A DNA stretch of 64,000 bases from a bacterium (GTDB taxonomy: Bacteria; Zhuqueibacterota; QNDG01; DSAB01). Positions 38,635-64,000 of the stretch are shown piece by piece; the stretch's first letter is position 1, and every line of letters begins with the position of its first letter. Where the stretch lies: contig DSAB01000119.1 of NCBI GenBank assembly GCA_011388275.1, positions 110,045-174,044 of the forward strand, given 5' to 3'. Both the position numbers and the translations under genes were made by a program. The notes below the pieces were generated by a model. The model did no database searches. It had not been told where the DNA came from and saw nothing but the letters and a program-made list of their open reading frames with translations.

Positions 38635-38663
38635 TTGATTTAATAGTGAAGAGGTCCTATATT
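38635..38663 (+). promoter_or_regulatory. sigma70-type promoter of the GT2 gene
   Basis: TTGATT-17-TATATT; implies a start codon at 38689 or 38701 rather than 38662. Confidence 0.55.
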
Positions 38664-38688
38664 GATAGCGGTTCCTCCTACAAACCTG

Positions 38689-39807
38689 ATGACGGATCCC
38701 ATGATTCTATTTCTCTTCACAGGTGCGCTCTTCCTCTTTTATGCCTTACTGCTCACCTGGCTTTCCGGAGGTTTCCGGCGATTGCGCCCGTCTTTAATTC
38801 GGCACTATCCATCTCTCAGCATTATTGTACCCGCTCATAATGAAGCACGTCATCTTCCGGTTCTGTTAAGCTGTCTTGAACGACAAATTTACCCGTCCGA
38901 CCGGCTGGAAATCATTCTGGTCAATGACCGTTCAAATGACGGAACGGAAAAGATCATGAAAAACTTCGTGAATCATCATGCCAGATCCTTCATGATTTCG
39001 ATCAAAGATGTCGATGAGGAATTCTCACCCAAGAAATACGCCATTACCCGCGGAATTGAGTCCGCGACAGGTGAAATCGTTCTCACAACCGATGCCGATG
39101 CGATACCCGGTCCCCGCTGGGCGGAAGCTATGGCCGGCTGTTTCGCTCCCGACACGGACATGGTGATCGGGTACGCGCCTTATCGAACCGACGGCCCGTA
39201 TGATTCTTTTTTTCATCGTCTTTTGGCTCTTGAATATTTTGTACTGGGATGTATCGGAGCCGCCTCTCTGGGGCGTGGATATCCAATATCCGCCAATGGA
39301 GCCAATTTGGCCTACAAGAGGAAGCGATTTATATCAACCGGAGGATTCGGTCCTGGACGGTGCATGATATCGGGTGACGATGATCTGCTCCTTCACCGGT
39401 TTCGATATGAGCGGGGCTTCCATGTCCGTTATGCCCTGTCCCGGGATGCCCGGGTCTTTAATAATCCTCCTTCCACCCTCCTTCGCTTTATCAAACAGCG
39501 TCTGCGCTTTTCGTCCAAACATCTGCGTTATCCTCCCAGGCTTCTCGCAGCCATGAGTCTCACGTATGCCTTTTATTCAGGGATTCTTTTGCTGATTGCC
39601 GGATCCATTCTTATGCCCTCATTGCGATGCGGCACTGCGATCCTTCTGTCAGGGAAAATCGCAGTGGAACTGTTTTTTCTGAGCCGCGGGAAACCATATC
39701 TCGAACAGCGAAACCTGATTCGATATTATCCCTTTGCCTTTTTTCCCCATCTCCTCTATGTTGTTTTAATTCCTTTTTTCGCGCGATTTCTACGAACCCG
39801 CTGGTAA
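38689..39807 (+). CDS. Membrane GT2 family glycosyltransferase
   Basis: N-terminal TM, IIVPAHNE, VNDRSND, TDAD, SGDDD, QRLRF (QxxRW-like), C-terminal TMs. Confidence 0.9.
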   Translation: MTDPMILFLFTGALFLFYALLLTWLSGGFRRLRPSLIRHYPSLSIIVPAHNEARHLPVLLSCLERQIYPSDRLEIILVNDRSNDGTEKIMKNFVNHHARSFMISIKDVDEEFSPKKYAITRGIESATGEIVLTTDADAIPGPRWAEAMAGCFAPDTDMVIGYAPYRTDGPYDSFFHRLLALEYFVLGCIGAASLGRGYPISANGANLAYKRKRFISTGGFGPGRCMISGDDDLLLHRFRYERGFHVRYALSRDARVFNNPPSTLLRFIKQRLRFSSKHLRYPPRLLAAMSLTYAFYSGILLLIAGSILMPSLRCGTAILLSGKIAVELFFLSRGKPYLEQRNLIRYYPFAFFPHLLYVVLIPFFARFLRTRW

Positions 39808-39859: not shown

Positions 39860-39888
39860 TTGACAAACAGAAAGACTTTCCGTATCTT
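39860..39888 (+). promoter_or_regulatory. sigma70-type promoter of spt-cerS
   Basis: TTGACA-17-TATCTT. Confidence 0.6.
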
Positions 39889-40020
39889 CTTTGGATGCCA
39901 TTTTAAGCATGACCACGTTTCATATTCCTGGATTTCAATTTTTCACCCGAATCTTTTCGCTGATACCTGTTCTGGAAACGAGAATTGAATCTTATGATGA
40001 AAAGCCGAAAGGAGAATTCT

Positions 40021-41208
40021 GTGGATATTTTTGATAAATGTCACAAGTTTACTCGAGCCAAAGAAGCCATCGCCGCAGGTATTTACCCCTATTTTCAACA
40101 AATCCAATCCGGCCCCGGTTCTGAAGTCATCATCAATGGAAAATCGATGATCATGATCGGATCCAACAACTATCTGGGTTTAACAGGCCATCCAAAAGTC
40201 ATTGAAGCCGGAATATCGGCTATTCGGAAATACGGGACCGGATGTACCGGATCCCGTTTCCTGAACGGGACCCTGGACATTCACGAAGAGCTGGAAAAAC
40301 GGCTTGCACGCTTTCTCAATCGCGAAGCGGTTCTCTGTTTCAGCACCGGTCATCATGTCAACCAGGGCTGCATATCCACGCTGGTCGGCAAGAAAGACAT
40401 CGTATTTACGGACCGGGCAGACCACGCCTCGATCGTCGATGGAACGCGACTGACTTTCGGTAAAATCGTCAAATACAAACACAATGACATGGAAGACCTG
40501 TGCCGGGCCCTGAAGCATTATGAAAATCATAGTGCCGGAAAAATGATTGTCACCGACGGTGTTTTCAGTATGGAAGGCGATATAGTCAATCTTCCGGGAC
40601 TGGTTAAGCTTGCAAACCAATTCAATGCTCGCGTGTACGTAGATGACGCCCACTCCGTGGGTGTTCTGGGAAAACACGGAAGGGGAACCGGAGAACATTT
40701 CGGTCTCGAAGATCAAATTGACCTTCAGATGGGAACCTTCAGCAAATCCTTCGCTTCACTGGGCGGTTTCGTCGCCGGAGATGAAGATGTCATTCACTAT
40801 ATCAAACACCATGCCCGTTCTCTGATTTTCACTGCCAGCGCCCCTCCGGCCTCGGTTGCCACGGTTCTGGCCGCTCTGGATATAATTGAATCAGAACCCG
40901 AACGTATCGAACAGTTGAGAAAAATCACTCAAAAGATGAAACGGGGTTATGACTCTCTGGGTTTCGACACCGGAAAAAGTGAGACTCCCATTATTCCCAT
41001 CAAGATCGGAAAGGAAGAAGACTGCTTGATGTTCTGGAAACTTCTGTTCGATAACGGCATTTTCGCAAATCCCTCCATCAGCCCGGCGGTCCCCCCCGGC
41101 GAAGCCATCATCCGGACCAGTTATATGGCCACCCACACGGAAGATGAACTAAATCAAATTCTGGAAATCTTCGCCCGATTGGGCAAGCAATTCGGAATTA
41201 TTCCATAA
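40021..41208 (+). CDS. spt: Serine palmitoyltransferase (alpha-oxoamine synthase family)
   Basis: GTG start after AAGGAG; YPYF, GSNNYLGL, GSRFLNGT, DHASI, DDAH, PLP lysine in MGTFSKS (SPT-type rather than the T[LF]GKA of BioF/Kbl). Confidence 0.85.
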   Translation: MDIFDKCHKFTRAKEAIAAGIYPYFQQIQSGPGSEVIINGKSMIMIGSNNYLGLTGHPKVIEAGISAIRKYGTGCTGSRFLNGTLDIHEELEKRLARFLNREAVLCFSTGHHVNQGCISTLVGKKDIVFTDRADHASIVDGTRLTFGKIVKYKHNDMEDLCRALKHYENHSAGKMIVTDGVFSMEGDIVNLPGLVKLANQFNARVYVDDAHSVGVLGKHGRGTGEHFGLEDQIDLQMGTFSKSFASLGGFVAGDEDVIHYIKHHARSLIFTASAPPASVATVLAALDIIESEPERIEQLRKITQKMKRGYDSLGFDTGKSETPIIPIKIGKEEDCLMFWKLLFDNGIFANPSISPAVPPGEAIIRTSYMATHTEDELNQILEIFARLGKQFGIIP

Positions 41209-41226
41209 ACAAGAATGAGGGAATCG

Positions 41227-42351
41227 ATGTCTTCTGAAAACGTTCAGATTTTTAACGTTCAATCGAAGAAGGATTGGAAACAGTTTGTCATGTTTCCATA
41301 CCACCTGTACCGTCACCATCCCTTCTGGGTGCCTCCGCTGATTTCCGATCAAAAGAAACTGCTGGATTTCGACCTCAATCCCTTTTTCAGCCATGCCTCG
41401 GGCCGTTTTTTCCTGGCGCGCCGTGGAAACATAATTGTAGGGCGCATAGCTGCCCTGGTTGATGATCTCCACAATCAGATTCACCATGAAAAGACCGGTT
41501 TCTTTGGTTTCCTGGCTGTGGAAAATGATTACGAAGCAGCGGCTGCTTTGCTGGACGCGGCAAGAAATTGGGTCCGAAAGCAGGGCATGAAACAATTTCG
41601 AGGCCCGGTGAATCCTTCGCAAAACGAAGACTGCGGCCTGCTCATCGACGCTTTTGATTCACCGCCCGTTATCATGATGCCCTATAATCCGGAGTATCTG
41701 GTTCACTTTTTAGATCAATACGGATTGAAAAAAGCGGTTGATTTATACGCCTATTTACTGGATGGAACCAAACCCCAGCCGCCTAAACTGGTTCGTGTCG
41801 CCGAATTGGTTGCGAAAAAACCGGGCGTGAATATTCGTCCAATTGATATGAAACATTTTTTTCAGGAAGCTCGAATGATTTGGAAAGTCTATAATTCGGC
41901 CTGGGCGAATAATTACGGATTCGTACCCATGACCGAAGAGGAATTTGTTAACCTTGCCAAACATCTCAAACAGGTGGTTGTTCCTGATTTGGCTCTGATG
42001 GCTGAAATACACGGTAAACCAGCAGGTTTCTCCCTGTCCATTCCCGACATGAACCAGGCACTTATTCATCTCAATGGACGTCTTTTCCCGCTCGGAATTT
42101 TCAAACTGCTTCATTACTCACGAAAAATCAATCAATTGCGGATAATCATACTCGGCGTCCTGCCGGAATACCGCCGAACCGGAGTCGACGCAGCCCTTTA
42201 CGGCCATACATGGAAAAACGCCGTTTCTCGTGGATATATAAAAGGCGAGATGTCATGGATTCTGGAGAATAATACCATGATGAACCGTTCGGCCCGCATG
42301 CTTGGGGGAAAAATATATAAAACCTATCGAATTTATGAAATGCAATCCTGA
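41227..42351 (+). CDS. GNAT-fold protein, bacterial ceramide synthase-like
   Basis: PYHLY..PFWVPPL, NPFF, VGRIAA, GFFGF, GLLIDAFD.PP..MMPYNPEY, PDMNQAL, EMSWILENN; 18 nt after spt. Confidence 0.8.
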   Translation: MSSENVQIFNVQSKKDWKQFVMFPYHLYRHHPFWVPPLISDQKKLLDFDLNPFFSHASGRFFLARRGNIIVGRIAALVDDLHNQIHHEKTGFFGFLAVENDYEAAAALLDAARNWVRKQGMKQFRGPVNPSQNEDCGLLIDAFDSPPVIMMPYNPEYLVHFLDQYGLKKAVDLYAYLLDGTKPQPPKLVRVAELVAKKPGVNIRPIDMKHFFQEARMIWKVYNSAWANNYGFVPMTEEEFVNLAKHLKQVVVPDLALMAEIHGKPAGFSLSIPDMNQALIHLNGRLFPLGIFKLLHYSRKINQLRIIILGVLPEYRRTGVDAALYGHTWKNAVSRGYIKGEMSWILENNTMMNRSARMLGGKIYKTYRIYEMQS

Positions 42352-42363
42352 ATTGTCCTGATA

Positions 42364-42598
42364 TGCACACAACTCATGCAACAAATTGTTATATATTTGT
42401 TACATTTTCAAGTCATTGATACTACTACATCTATGGTTTTTTCTCGATAATTTGTAAACTATTGTTAACATTCTGATTATTAACATCCCTGGAATAATGT
42501 GCATTCCGATACATCCAATTCTATCCTTAAGTTATATCTAATCAATATATTATCTGTCTTCATCGATGATGACATCGAAGAATGGCATGTTTCTTGTT
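42364..42598 (+). promoter_or_regulatory. Putative sigma54 promoter with upstream activator sites and IHF site
   Basis: TGGCATGTTTCTTGT at 42583-42597 (GG-N10-GT); IHF consensus AATCAATATATTA at 42540-42552; TGT-N12-ACA at 42387-42404 and 42453-42470; TGCA-N9-TGCA at 42364-42380. Confidence 0.55.
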
Positions 42599-42608
42599 AT
42601 GGAAAATA

Positions 42609-42677
42609 GTGTTGGTGCAATTCTCATCTCGCCTCTCCCCTTTGAAAAAAGGCCTGGATCCCCTCCAGGCCTTTTTC
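42609..42677 (+). ncRNA. Candidate sigma54-dependent small RNA (~70 nt)
   Basis: Lies between the predicted sigma54 start and a strong terminator; C/U-rich CTCATCTCGCCTCTCCCC segment; no convincing plus-strand gene. Confidence 0.45.
42645..42677. terminator. Bidirectional intrinsic terminator
   Basis: AAAAAA-GGCCTGGA-TCCCC-TCCAGGCC-TTTTT. Confidence 0.85.
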
Positions 42678-42706
42678 TGTAATCTATGCATAACGTTCCA
42701 AAAAAG

Positions 42707-43054
42707 TTATTCGATCCAGTATAATATCCTTCCACATTGTTCGCATGTCATAATTGTCTGATCCGATCGTCCGGAAGCTTCATAAGAAGTGGGCAAGCGA
42801 GCGAAACATCCCAAACAGGTGCCGTCCTGAACCGGGGCAATGACTCTTATGTAACGTGTATTCAGTCGTTGAAAGGTCCGAAGCAATCGGGTTTCGATCC
42901 TTTTTCCCAAATCATCTCTTGCTTTTTCCAGACTCTCTCTTCCCTTTAATTTAAATCCGGCTTTTTTTTCTTCCTGTTCCGCTTCCAGAAGCATCATGCT
43001 GATGTCCTGATATAAAACCAAGAGTTCCAACTGATTTTTCGTCAATGGAATCAC
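42707..43054 (-). CDS. Short coiled-coil/C4 zinc-ribbon protein (DUF164/CT398-like)
   Basis: LVLYQDI N-terminus; CLGC..LP..CEQCGRILY. Confidence 0.8.
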   Translation of the reverse strand: MIPLTKNQLELLVLYQDISMMLLEAEQEEKKAGFKLKGRESLEKARDDLGKRIETRLLRTFQRLNTRYIRVIAPVQDGTCLGCFARLPTSYEASGRSDQTIMTCEQCGRILYWIE

Positions 43055-46583: not shown

Positions 46584-48275
46584 ATGATTATTGAACTGGA
46601 AACCTGGACGATCAGAGCCTTGATGGAACGAAGTTTTTCCCATTACGGCAACCTCCCTGCAATTGCCTTTGCAGGAGAATCGCCCAAAACCTACAATGAA
46701 GTGCACGCGGAGGTTCAAAAACTCGCAGCGGATCTGATCTCGAGAAACATTCAGAAAGGTGACCGGATCGGCATTCTGGGTGAAAACTGTCCCAACTGGG
46801 TCATCGCCTATCTGGCGGTTGCTTTTATCGGCGCCGTGGCGGTTCCCATCCTGACCGGTTTTCCGGACGCGGACACCCGTCATATCCTTCGAAACAGCGA
46901 ATGCGTGGCCCTGTTTATCGCTTCCAAACTTCGAACCAAGATTGAAGGCATGGAGAAATCTTCTCTTCACTCCATCTACTCTCTGGAAGATTTCTCTCTT
47001 GAAGAGCTGCAATCAAGCCATTCTAATTGGCTGGAAAAAACCATTCAGCTGATTCACAAACGTACCGGTAAAAAACCCGACCATCAAGACATACTCAAGG
47101 AGCTGCCGGGCCCTCAGCCGGAAGATCTGGCTGTGATTATCTATACATCCGGCACGACGGGAAATTCCAAAGGTGTCATGCTGAGCCATTATAATATCGT
47201 TTCCGATGTGATTTTCAGTATTGAAAAATTTCCGATCACGCATGAAGACCGTTTCCTGTCCATTCTTCCGCTGGCACACACTTTTGAAGCCACGGGAGGC
47301 ATGCTCTGTCCGCTGGCCGTTGGAGTGAGCATCTACTACTTAAAAGGACTTCCGACACCCCAAAAGCTGCTTGCCGGCATGGAAACGGTCAAACCTACAG
47401 GGGTATTGACTGTTCCCCTGGTGGTTGACAAAATATACCGAAAGAAGATTGTTCCGCAACTTCAGAGCAAAAAAGCAATCTGGGCCCTCTACCACATTCC
47501 CTTTTTCAGACGGCTGCTGAACAAGGCCGCAGGCCGCAAGCTGGTTCAATCTCTGGGCGGCGCCCTTCGATTCTTTATGTTTGGCGGGGCTTCCCTGAAT
47601 GAAGATGTGGAAATATTTCTTCGGGATGCCGGTATCAGTTACTCGACCGGTTACGGAATGACCGAAACATCACCCATTATGACGATCAACCCCTTCGGCC
47701 ATGTAAAAGTCGGTTCCTGCGGCCAGCCCATACCCAACCTGGAAATAAAAATTCACAATCCGAATCCGGAAACCGGCATCGGTGAAATCATCGTCAAAGG
47801 ACCCATGGTCATGCAGGGTTATTACAAGAATCCCAAAGCCACCGAAGAGGTTTTCATTGATGGTGAATGGCTGCGGACCGGTGATCTGGGGTTCCTCGAC
47901 AGCGACGGATACCTGTTTATCAAGGGCCGTTCAAAAAACGTGATTATCGGATCATCCGGCGAGAACATCTATCCAGAAATTATTGAACAGTTGATGCTGC
48001 AGAACCCGTATATTCAGCAGGTTATTGTTTATGAATCTCAGGGAAAATTGACGGCGAAATCCTATATGGACGCGGACATGATCGATCAGGAAGCGGAGAA
48101 AGCGGGGATAACAACGGAAAACCTGGAGTCTTTCAAGGAGCAGTTGCTGGAAGAAATCCGCAAGAAAACGAATGAGCAGCTGCCCGGCTTCTCGGCTATT
48201 TCTAAAATTATCGAACAGCCTGAACCCTTTGAAATGACACCAACCAATAAAGTGAAACGGTATCTCTATATATAA
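46584..48275 (+). CDS. Long-chain fatty acid--CoA ligase (AMP-binding)
   Basis: IIYTSGTTGNSKG, GYGMTET, WLRTGDLG, KGRSKNVI..GENIYPE. Confidence 0.92.
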   Translation: MIIELETWTIRALMERSFSHYGNLPAIAFAGESPKTYNEVHAEVQKLAADLISRNIQKGDRIGILGENCPNWVIAYLAVAFIGAVAVPILTGFPDADTRHILRNSECVALFIASKLRTKIEGMEKSSLHSIYSLEDFSLEELQSSHSNWLEKTIQLIHKRTGKKPDHQDILKELPGPQPEDLAVIIYTSGTTGNSKGVMLSHYNIVSDVIFSIEKFPITHEDRFLSILPLAHTFEATGGMLCPLAVGVSIYYLKGLPTPQKLLAGMETVKPTGVLTVPLVVDKIYRKKIVPQLQSKKAIWALYHIPFFRRLLNKAAGRKLVQSLGGALRFFMFGGASLNEDVEIFLRDAGISYSTGYGMTETSPIMTINPFGHVKVGSCGQPIPNLEIKIHNPNPETGIGEIIVKGPMVMQGYYKNPKATEEVFIDGEWLRTGDLGFLDSDGYLFIKGRSKNVIIGSSGENIYPEIIEQLMLQNPYIQQVIVYESQGKLTAKSYMDADMIDQEAEKAGITTENLESFKEQLLEEIRKKTNEQLPGFSAISKIIEQPEPFEMTPTNKVKRYLYI

Positions 48276-62333: not shown

Positions 62334-63116
62334 CTATTCCCTGACTTCCGCATAACGGTCCAAACGAAATTGCGATCCCAAATAGATCTTTCTCGCTTCT
62401 TCATCGTTGGCCAGGAACTCCGATGTGCCTGATTTCAATATTTTTCCCTCCGACAACAAATACGACCGGTCCGTGATTGAAAGTGTTTCATACACGTTGT
62501 GATCGGTAATCAAGACACCGATGTTCTTGTCCTTTAAGTGCATCACAATATTCTGAATATCTTCAATGGCAATCGGATCGATTCCAGCAAACGGTTCATC
62601 CAGAAGAATAAAACGCGGATTGGTTACCAGCGCCCGGGTGATCTCGACACGCCGGCGCTCGCCTCCGGAGAGTGTATAAGCTTTCTGTTTTCGAAGAGAT
62701 TCAATCGAGAGTTCCTGAAGCAAAACTTCAAGCCGATTCATTTGTTCTTCACGGGAAATATTCATGGTTTCAAGAATCGCCAGAATATTCTGTTCCACGG
62801 TTAATTTGCGGAAAACGGACGCTTCCTGGCTCAGATAACCGATTCCCATGCGAGCCCTTCGATACATAGGCAGCCGGGTGATATTCCTGTCATTGAAAAA
62901 AATATCACCTTCATTGGGTCGAATCATTCCGGTAATCATATAAAAAGTCGTGGTTTTGCCCGCACCGTTGGGGCCCAGCAGACCCACAATCTCACCAAGG
63001 CGAACCTCCACGGACACGCTGTCAACGACTCTCCGGCGTCGATAAATTTTCACCAGATTCCGGGCGCTTAATACGTCAACAGGCGCTGTGCCGTCTGGTT
63101 CAGGACGTTCAGTCAA
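62334..63116 (-). CDS. lptB: LPS export ABC transporter ATP-binding protein LptB
   Basis: [38 protein letters not shown]. Confidence 0.96.
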
Positions 63117-64000
63117 AGATTTTCCCCTCTGCCTCTTTTCGCTTTTTCTTTGGGTTTGTATTCTCCGGTACTCAAACCGGGAGAGCTTTCAACGAGAACC
63201 TGTTTGACCTGACCCTCTTCATTAAATTCAAGGATGATCCGGTCACCTGTAACCGTATTGACTCCTTCATTCACTTCATTTTCATCGAATATATAATAGA
63301 CACTGGAGGCCTGTCCTTCCACAATAACCTGCTCGACCGTATCACGGGAAGCGATTATTCGTATTCTCTTTCCATTCAGGACATTTCGATGCAGAGAATC
63401 TTCACCCCAAAATATTTCGGCGTTCCCCCGAATCAACCCCCCGCTGAACTTGAGAGAATCGAGCATCATATCGATGGTGTCGCCGGCCATCTCCTGATCG
63501 GTAAAAAATATTTTTGGTGTTTTCTGAAGCACGATCCGTTCTTCTTCCGCGTAATAATCGGCTGTCTCGGAAACGGCTTTCAAGTTACCGCGGGTAATCA
63601 CCACACTGTCCCTGGCAAAGACTCTTTGCTCCTCTCCCCAGGCTTCCAGATAGCGGCATTCCATGGTCATAGTGTCACGGCTGCTCGTATCGATTTTTAC
63701 AGCCCTGACCCGGCCTGTCATCAATCCATAATCCTTGTTACGGTCGTACAAGGCTTCGTCTCCAGATAGTTCAACCGATTCGATCATATCATTGATCCGG
63801 ACACGACCTGTGGCTCTGGCGACTTTCGAATTCTGATTGTATATCACCTGATCGCCTCGAAGCGTTCGGTGATCCTCATGCAAAAATACATCGCCTGTGG
63901 CGATCTCGGTCCGGGTTTTTCCGTTATACTGCACACGCTGGCTCGTCAGAGTTCGTTTCCCATCGAAAATGTGTACATTATCATCAAGAAAAACGAGTTC
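63113..64000 (-). CDS. LptA/OstA-like beta-jellyroll protein (partial, starts beyond window end)
   Basis: Frame stays open to 64000 ([22 protein letters not shown]...); repeated OstA-type strands; directly upstream of lptB. Confidence 0.82.

Follow-up and report, generated by a model that had tools for sequence, protein, structure and literature searches.

A predicted spt-bcerS gene pair for ceramide synthesis in an uncultured bacterial lineage

The gene pair and its two proteins

The sequence analyzed here is a stretch of 64,000 nucleotides on contig C2 of genome G000 (C2:110045-174044; hereafter the window), from an uncultured bacterium whose proteins find their best named matches in KSB1, Zixibacteria and Calditrichota. 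Two adjacent genes on the plus strand are predicted to act in sphingolipid synthesis. The first, spt (39994..41208), encodes an alpha-oxoamine synthase (AOS) resembling serine palmitoyltransferase (Spt), and the second (41227..42351) a bcerS-like tandem-GNAT N-acyltransferase of 374 aa from the YghO / CC_1154 family. The initial annotation had described an AOS with SPT-type motifs, followed 18 nt later by a GNAT-fold protein of ~375 aa. Coordinates, spacing and all nine motifs were recovered: YPYF, GSRFLNGT, DHAS and GTFSKS in the translation of the AOS, and WVPPL, NPFF, GRIAA, MPYN and SWILENN in that of the GNAT protein. The open reading frame (ORF) of the AOS, 39985-41208, has 407 aa when counted from its opening TTG at 39985. 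Its start is probably ATG 39994 or 39997, because the alignments of relatives begin at residue 7-10. For the GNAT gene, whose ORF opens at 41215, ATG 41227 is the likely start. A GAGGGA purine run (41217-22) precedes this codon, which is located 18 nt past the TAA stop of the AOS (41206-08); the resulting 374 aa equal the length of most GNAT homologues among the matches listed.

The AOS belongs to the Pfam family Aminotran_1_2 (185 bits). Its top NCBIfam model is NF047600 (SerpalmtaseCFB) with 552.6 bits, short of the curated equivalog cut-off of 640 bits, and this model leads the next family by 135 bits. Lower scores were obtained for the BioF/Kbl subfamily (417.7 bits), beta-proteobacterial Spt (392.9), BioF (391.8), Kbl (383.3) and the alpha-proteobacterial Spt model NF047603 (309). 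The homologue in the related locus L016 reaches 565 bits on NF047600. Because the curated cut-off is not reached, we use the label "Spt-like" for the AOS. The best relative of solved structure is the SPT of Sphingobacterium multivorum (PDB 3A2B, 8GUH; 447 bits, residues 17-402 aligned), followed by a Thermus AOS/Kbl (290 bits), Sphingomonas SPT (270), Kbl (265), two cysteate-C-fatty acyltransferases (240 and 239) and BioF (198). The protein is closer to characterized SPT than to the Kbl, BioF, ALAS, CqsA and cysteate acyltransferase classes (447 versus 290, 265, 240, 198, 175 and 124 bits). Its GTFSKS, DHAS, DDAHS and GSRFLNGT blocks align with identical blocks in 8GUH, which we take to comprise the block of the lysine that binds pyridoxal phosphate (PLP) and further conserved active-site blocks.

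Three other AOS matches are present in the genome. One is a Kbl that exceeds both curated cut-offs with 577 and 576 bits (the cut-off for the former being 460 bits), another is an ambiguous AOS of BioF/Kbl type, and the third is a fragment resembling Kbl. A phylogeny of the AOS against BioF and Kbl had been proposed as a check. We calculated a tree of 60 rows by a quick method, including the window AOS, 56 GNAT-adjacent AOSs and the E. coli Spt that passes NF047599. The Kbl and the second AOS of the genome split from all of these (Shimodaira-Hasegawa approximate likelihood-ratio test (SH-aLRT) 84, not starred), and the window AOS is nested deep among the GNAT-adjacent AOSs. Clustering with BioF/Kbl was therefore not observed. 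These results support, at the level of sequence, an Spt-like enzyme rather than BioF or Kbl, in agreement with the initial assignment.

The second protein is less well covered by models. Pfam gave weak matches to Acetyltransf_1 (25 bits) over two stretches of the protein, neither NCBIfam nor Pfam has a dedicated model for it, and a sequence search of the PDB returned no relative. An AlphaFold2 model was obtained with a predicted local distance difference test (pLDDT) value of 88.7 from a 19-row alignment. The top fold matches of this model are tandem GNATs, namely MAB_4324, the clavulanate tandem GNAT, glucosamine N-acetyltransferase and MshD. No hydrophobic segment is present (maximum 19-residue hydropathy 1.01). 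The family is large, with at least 7,563 clusters at E<=0.001 when 8,000 candidates were scored.

A connection to sphingolipid genes is provided by E. coli YghO. With 37% identity over 375 columns (BLASTP, E 9e-82), the window protein is a full-length YghO homologue, and YghO was likewise found in the plasmid collection by tblastn (37% identity, 98% of the query). In the E. coli record NZ_MG591698.1, yghO adjoins genes for a fatty acyl-AMP ligase, an NAD-epimerase, an acyl carrier protein (ACP) and an Spt-like AOS as well as lptF/lptG copies. The available excerpts of one study list aca genes, encoding an acyl-CoA N-acyltransferase required for dihydroceramide synthesis, which include CC_1154, yghO (ECD_02850) and Swit_3908, and describe C. 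crescentus and E. coli BL21 as the only cases in which the five dihydroceramide genes form a cluster (PMC9386255). CC_1154 is named CerS in excerpts of another report and adjoins LptF2/LptG2 (CC_1156, CC_1155) (PMC11324152). In Sphingomonas and Roseomonas, the homologues (identity 35% and 38%, respectively) are encoded directly 3' of LptF/LptG copies, as CC_1154 is in Caulobacter. Taken together, the sequence comparisons support the assignment of the window protein as a bCerS-like N-acyltransferase of the YghO / CC_1154 family. The proposal of bCerS thus held up, through the homology to YghO, the published link to CC_1154 and the synteny described below.

Conservation of the pairing and the GNAT paralogues

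Conservation was analyzed in species-representative genomes, using the best 80 of 596 confirmed relatives (39-60% identity, none from Caulobacter). An Spt-like AOS lies beside the GNAT gene in 64 of the 80 loci, within 300 nt in 61 and within 2.3 kb in 3 more, and these 64 loci span 17 named phyla. In 52/80 loci the AOS gene is immediately 5' of the GNAT gene on the same strand (median gap 38 nt). The AOS gene is found immediately 3' in 9/80 loci and 1.0-2.3 kb 5' in 3/80. A set of 30 near relatives from the same family or order gave a similar picture: an Spt orthologue (at least 71% identical) was detected in 26 genomes and one of the GNAT (at least 55%) in 21, and 19 genomes keep the two genes adjacent in the order spt to GNAT.

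Further genes recur beside the pair. A reductase of the NAD-epimerase family that belongs to the Spt-adjacent clade is encoded in 30/80 loci; the corresponding neighbour cluster has 31 members, and HMM (hidden Markov model) score and tree placed 30 locus proteins in one clade and 3 cluster members as outlying paralogues. Trios of AOS, GNAT and reductase genes are also carried on Streptomyces, Rubrobacter and Aureispira plasmids. A PAP2_3/PAP2_C membrane protein adjoins the pair in 17/80 loci from several phyla. PAP2_3 and PAP2_C are presumably the Pfam families of inositol-phosphorylceramide and sphingomyelin synthases, and the neighbour is likely a ceramide head-group transferase. Loci with this gene include L055, L062-L064, L067, L039, L047, L026, L031, L041 and L048.

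A class IV aminotransferase is a recurrent partner in 7/80 loci. In six loci from Bacteroidota and Kryptoniota (L028, L035, L036, L038, L053 and L058) a class IV (branched-chain) aminotransferase gene follows immediately 3' of the GNAT gene, and in five of these six (not L028) it is followed by genes for a cyclic nucleotide (cNMP)-binding protein and a universal stress protein. One more class IV aminotransferase family member was noticed ~8 kb away in L086.

The genome contains five copies of the GNAT family, and the window copy alone adjoins an AOS gene. None of the other four (C6:20336-21484, C12:28634-29860, C4:50029-51153 and C85:67-864; loci L010-L013) is located beside an AOS. Depending on the copy, the neighbours are genes for an S58 peptidase, NfeD, Band-7 and radical-SAM proteins, transporter genes of the EamA and MatE families, an S9 peptidase gene or an SSF transporter gene. 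With several YghO/bCerS paralogues per genome, a family match alone therefore does not identify a ceramide synthase. Among the five, the window copy is the best match for the YghO, Sphingomonas, Roseomonas, Streptomyces, Rubrobacter and Aureispira references.

A GNAT tree of 86 rows was built by a quick method with an arbitrary root; 8 of the 80 loci were omitted, as their GNAT ORF was not recovered. Here, the window copy is sister to the copy of L016 (support 99, starred). A group of 74 rows (SH-aLRT 87) comprises 55 Spt-adjacent rows, 17 rows without Spt in the stretch, the window copy and the C6 paralogue. A proteobacterial trio (99, starred), two actinobacterial trios and the C12 paralogue meet in a polytomy, leaving the deep order unsettled, and C4 and C85 group with homologues from Bacteroides finegoldii and Prevotella (99, starred).

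A candidate reductase and the surroundings of the pair

The initial annotation had reported neither CerR nor a dedicated ACP, and both absences were reproduced. No reductase match was found inside the window; a PP-binding (ACP) match was likewise not found there, all 3 genome matches being elsewhere. A genome search for CerR had been suggested, and it yielded a candidate whose assignment to the organism is uncertain. The best genome match to the reductase HMM is C150:395-1525 (341 bits), the next paralogue of the genome reaching 258 bits. In a careful tree of 43 rows, the candidate falls within the Spt-adjacent reductase clade (support 94/95, not starred), and nine other paralogues of the genome fall outside. 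Its identity to the epimerase of the E. coli cluster is 28%. The reductases of near relatives, to which the C150 ORF is 40-44% identical, are encoded divergently beside spt in 6/30 relatives. Several features count against a common origin with the pair. The identity of 40-44% is low, though the relatives' reductases are themselves just 38-58% alike. The genome that carries L016 (G001) holds only a 32% match to the candidate, and contig C150 is just 3,078 bp long with a GC content of 56% (ORF 59%), compared with 48% for C2. On sequence grounds, it is plausible but not secure that C150:395-1525 encodes the CerR of the same organism.

GC content varies between 45.5 and 58.7% among the contigs of the bin, with 47.8% for C2 and a genome mean of 52.2%. 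For one organism this is a wide range, which matters when small contigs such as C150 are assigned. An epimerase gene 8 kb 3' in L016 was tried as a CerR query and rejected as a non-orthologous paralogue. Similarly, a cluster on contig C1 with epimerase, AMP-ligase, ACP-like and AOS genes was rejected as a second sphingolipid module: its ligase and AOS are an acetate-CoA ligase and Kbl, both above their cut-offs. This cluster (C1:14265-19743, minus strand; L014) encodes an NAD-epimerase-like short-chain dehydrogenase/reductase, the acetate-CoA ligase, a small ACP-like ORF, Kbl and an MFS transporter, with the Kbl-like fragment in divergent orientation. The ACP-like ORF is positioned between acs and kbl; its best match, an ornithine-lipid ACP model, stays below the cut-off.

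Upstream of the pair, a gene for a membrane glycosyltransferase of GT2/GT21 type (38662-39807, plus strand) is a weakly linked neighbour. Pfam returned PF00535 (72.6 bits) and, marginally, PF13506 (GT21; 25.3 bits against a cut-off of 21.7), which we take to be the ceramide glucosyltransferase family. Hydrophobic segments are present at both termini. As a sequence-feature match, PF13506 occurs in 89-100% of the members of all five Atlas clusters listed for this protein. The protein is possibly a lipid glycosyltransferase. Its gene is contiguous with spt here and in 4/30 relatives (G012, G014, G026 and G030) and located elsewhere in the others; orthologues (40-43% identity) also occur in three relatives in which Spt was not found, the genomes being 80-87% complete. 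It appears doubtful that this protein is a bacterial ceramide glycosyltransferase and that glycosyltransferase, spt and bcerS form a three-gene module for glycosylceramide in a lineage without the PAP2-type head-group enzyme that accompanies the pair in other phyla.

A dedicated promoter had also been proposed for the operon, and this part found no support. The 185-nt gap 5' of spt contains a sigma-70-like hexamer pair, TTGACA-17-TATCTT (39860..39888, plus strand), which matches the consensus in 10/12 positions. Promoter-like sites are not enriched in the region (10 versus 7.8 +/- 2.8 in shuffles), and the match is therefore no evidence of a promoter. Downstream of the operon, an AT-rich gap of 355 nt (42352-42706) has no notable ORF and no Rfam family above threshold. 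It terminates in a hairpin common to the operon and a convergent zinc-ribbon gene (42707-43054, minus strand). On direct reading of the sequence, this GC-rich hairpin (42650..42676) has the arms AGGCCTGGA and TCCAGGCCT, with A and T runs on its flanks, and possibly acts as a terminator in both directions, for the operon and for the convergent gene. The scan of the region did not list it, and Rfam matches over the operon region were sub-threshold and confined to the hairpin.

The other neighbours are housekeeping genes, namely those for IleRS, a DivIVA-domain protein, a T9SS subtilase, a PTS EIIA-2-domain protein and a nucleotidyl-transferase with a C-terminal domain of mannose-1-phosphate guanylyltransferase type, as well as lspA, coaE and ychF. 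The reported presence of lptAB was corroborated: lptB (62334-63116, minus strand) scores 365 bits against a cut-off of 240, and an LptA-like gene (63113-63934, minus strand) is adjacent. An acyl-CoA ligase gene (46584-48275) is the nearest AMP-ligase gene to spt, and genes for a dedicated ACP and acyl-ACP synthetase (the rhodobacterial AcpR plus AasR module) were not found next to spt. The ligase was considered as a member of the system and excluded, because five housekeeping genes separate it from the pair; it lies 4.2 kb off, and its position is kept in L016.

Proposed pathway and comparison with known systems

We consider it likely that the spt-bcerS operon makes the backbone of a ceramide and that an unlinked CerR-type enzyme completes dihydroceramide. 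In this pathway 3-ketosphinganine would be formed by Spt, a soluble PLP enzyme of the Bacteroidota (CFB) type, through condensation of L-serine and a long-chain acyl thioester. Because neither a dedicated ACP nor an acyl-ACP synthetase is encoded nearby, the acyl donor is probably acyl-CoA. The tandem-GNAT protein would then N-acylate the long-chain base with a second acyl chain, and an NAD(P)H-dependent reductase encoded elsewhere, for which G000:C150:395-1525 is the candidate, would reduce the 3-keto group to yield dihydroceramide. The order of steps follows the available part of a localization study in Caulobacter (PMC11087976). Homology, fold, gene order and conservation were observed directly, and from these we infer which substrates are used, in which order acylation and reduction occur and that the lipid is formed at all.

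Several observations weigh against this pathway. The link of the GNAT protein to the CHARACTERISED enzyme is one step removed, as it passes through YghO and the published list of homologues. The window copy leads the C6 paralogue by a narrow margin in the comparison with YghO (233 versus 215 bits), and C6, on a long branch, sits inside the same large tree group. Homologues from Bacteroides and Prevotella fall with the other paralogues of the genome and not with the Spt-linked copy. No Spt was found nearby in 10/80 loci though both flanks were present, a further 6/80 being not judgeable. Among the near relatives, G013, G017, G019, G021 and G025 have Spt without a GNAT orthologue at E<=1e-60, the contig of G017 stopping beside spt. 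A PAP2_3 orthologue was not found in the genome of the window. Finally, with the AOS below the NF047600 cut-off, its sequence does not separate users of serine, alanine, glycine and cysteate.

This last point leads to an alternative in which the same pair acts on another head amino acid (alanine, glycine or cysteate) and forms 1-deoxyceramide-like or sulfonolipid-like lipids. Besides the sub-threshold score, it draws on a study of the Black Sea, excerpts of which report 1-deoxyceramides as well as a broad clade B of "Spt-like" proteins with only inferred activity (PMC11334938). However, the AOS aligns with the serine-using SPT far better than with the cysteate-C-fatty acyltransferases (447 versus 240 and 239 bits), and Kbl also scores far lower. 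Moreover, the PAP2_3/PAP2_C enzymes at 17/80 loci would presumably need a C1 hydroxyl, which serine alone would leave. We therefore regard the use of another amino acid as unlikely.

It is very improbable that the GNAT protein acylates another amine, for example toward an N-acyl amino-ketone signal, and is not a ceramide synthase. Such a role would fit the presence of five paralogues in unrelated neighbourhoods, four of which presumably act on other amines, the lack of a curated family model in the databases searched and the loci without a nearby Spt. Against this, 64/80 loci, distributed over 17 named phyla, have the gene next to spt, genes for reductase and PAP2 proteins recur alongside, and the homology to YghO, which is encoded in a complete spt/acp/epi/aas cluster, is full-length. 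That the AOS is a housekeeping BioF or Kbl is hardly credible, as the 392 and 383 bits on these models, expected within one superfamily, are below the models' own cut-offs and ~160 bits below the Spt model, a separate Kbl above cut-off exists in the genome, and the tree puts the AOS among GNAT-adjacent AOSs.

The predicted ceramide pathway can be compared with several known systems. The founding paper of the Caulobacter bCerS pathway is reportedly that of Stankeviciute et al. 2022. According to the available excerpts of later reports, the Caulobacter crescentus set consists of Spt (CC_1162/CCNA_01220), CerS/bCerS (CC_1154/CCNA_01212) and CerR (CC_1164/CCNA_01222) (PMC11324152, PMC9393093, PMC11087976). 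The same classes are found here, a PLP-dependent alpha-oxoamine synthase, a GNAT-type N-acyltransferase and, as a candidate, an NAD-epimerase-type reductase. One report places Caulobacter bCerS in the cytoplasm, as a peripheral membrane protein for which no transmembrane regions are predicted (PMC11087976), and the window GNAT likewise has no hydrophobic segment. In contrast to Caulobacter, the window pair has no linked ACP or acyl-ACP synthetase gene and no adjoining LptF/G copies, CerR is unlinked, and the Spt is of the CFB type and not of the alpha-proteobacterial type. The window GNAT gene follows immediately 3' of spt on the same strand, the arrangement seen in most of the 80 loci.

The yghO cluster of E. 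coli BL21 type (ECD_02850-02854) resembles the window pair in both proteins, YghO being 37% and its AOS 38% identical. However, the E. coli Spt is accepted by the beta-proteobacterial model (599.9 bits) and is accompanied by an ACP and a fatty acyl-AMP ligase, in which the window Spt differs. Furthermore, E. coli yghO is divergently transcribed and not co-operonic, whereas the window GNAT gene follows spt. The SPT of Sphingobacterium multivorum shares the GSRFLNGT, DHAS and GTFSKS blocks with the window AOS, which differs in coming from another, uncultured lineage and in its score below the NF047600 cut-off. For Bacteroidota, excerpts of the Black Sea study report the three pathway genes as unlinked (PMC11334938).

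Among the papers listed by a literature search for serine palmitoyltransferase in KSB1, Zixibacteria or Calditrichota, none carried the name of the enzyme. With this pair, the set of uncultured lineages predicted to combine sphingolipids with lipopolysaccharide grows by one. Outside Proteobacteria, the cerS homologue is usually located directly 3' of spt (52/80 loci), which contrasts with a published rhodobacterial statement of an always-separate operon. The picture of the ceramide pathway is unchanged by the pair. A parallel is offered by the "Spt-like" clade B of the Black Sea metagenome-assembled genomes, with Spt-like genes in many uncultured phyla and bCerS and CerR homologues often nearby. 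Because the available text of that study already describes frequent clustering of the three genes and extends the prediction of Spt-like proteins to 38 phyla (Ding et al., ISME J 2024, PMC11334938), the pathway is a known one and not new, and the spt-bcerS pair is an ordinary further instance of what has already been predicted for dozens of bacterial phyla.

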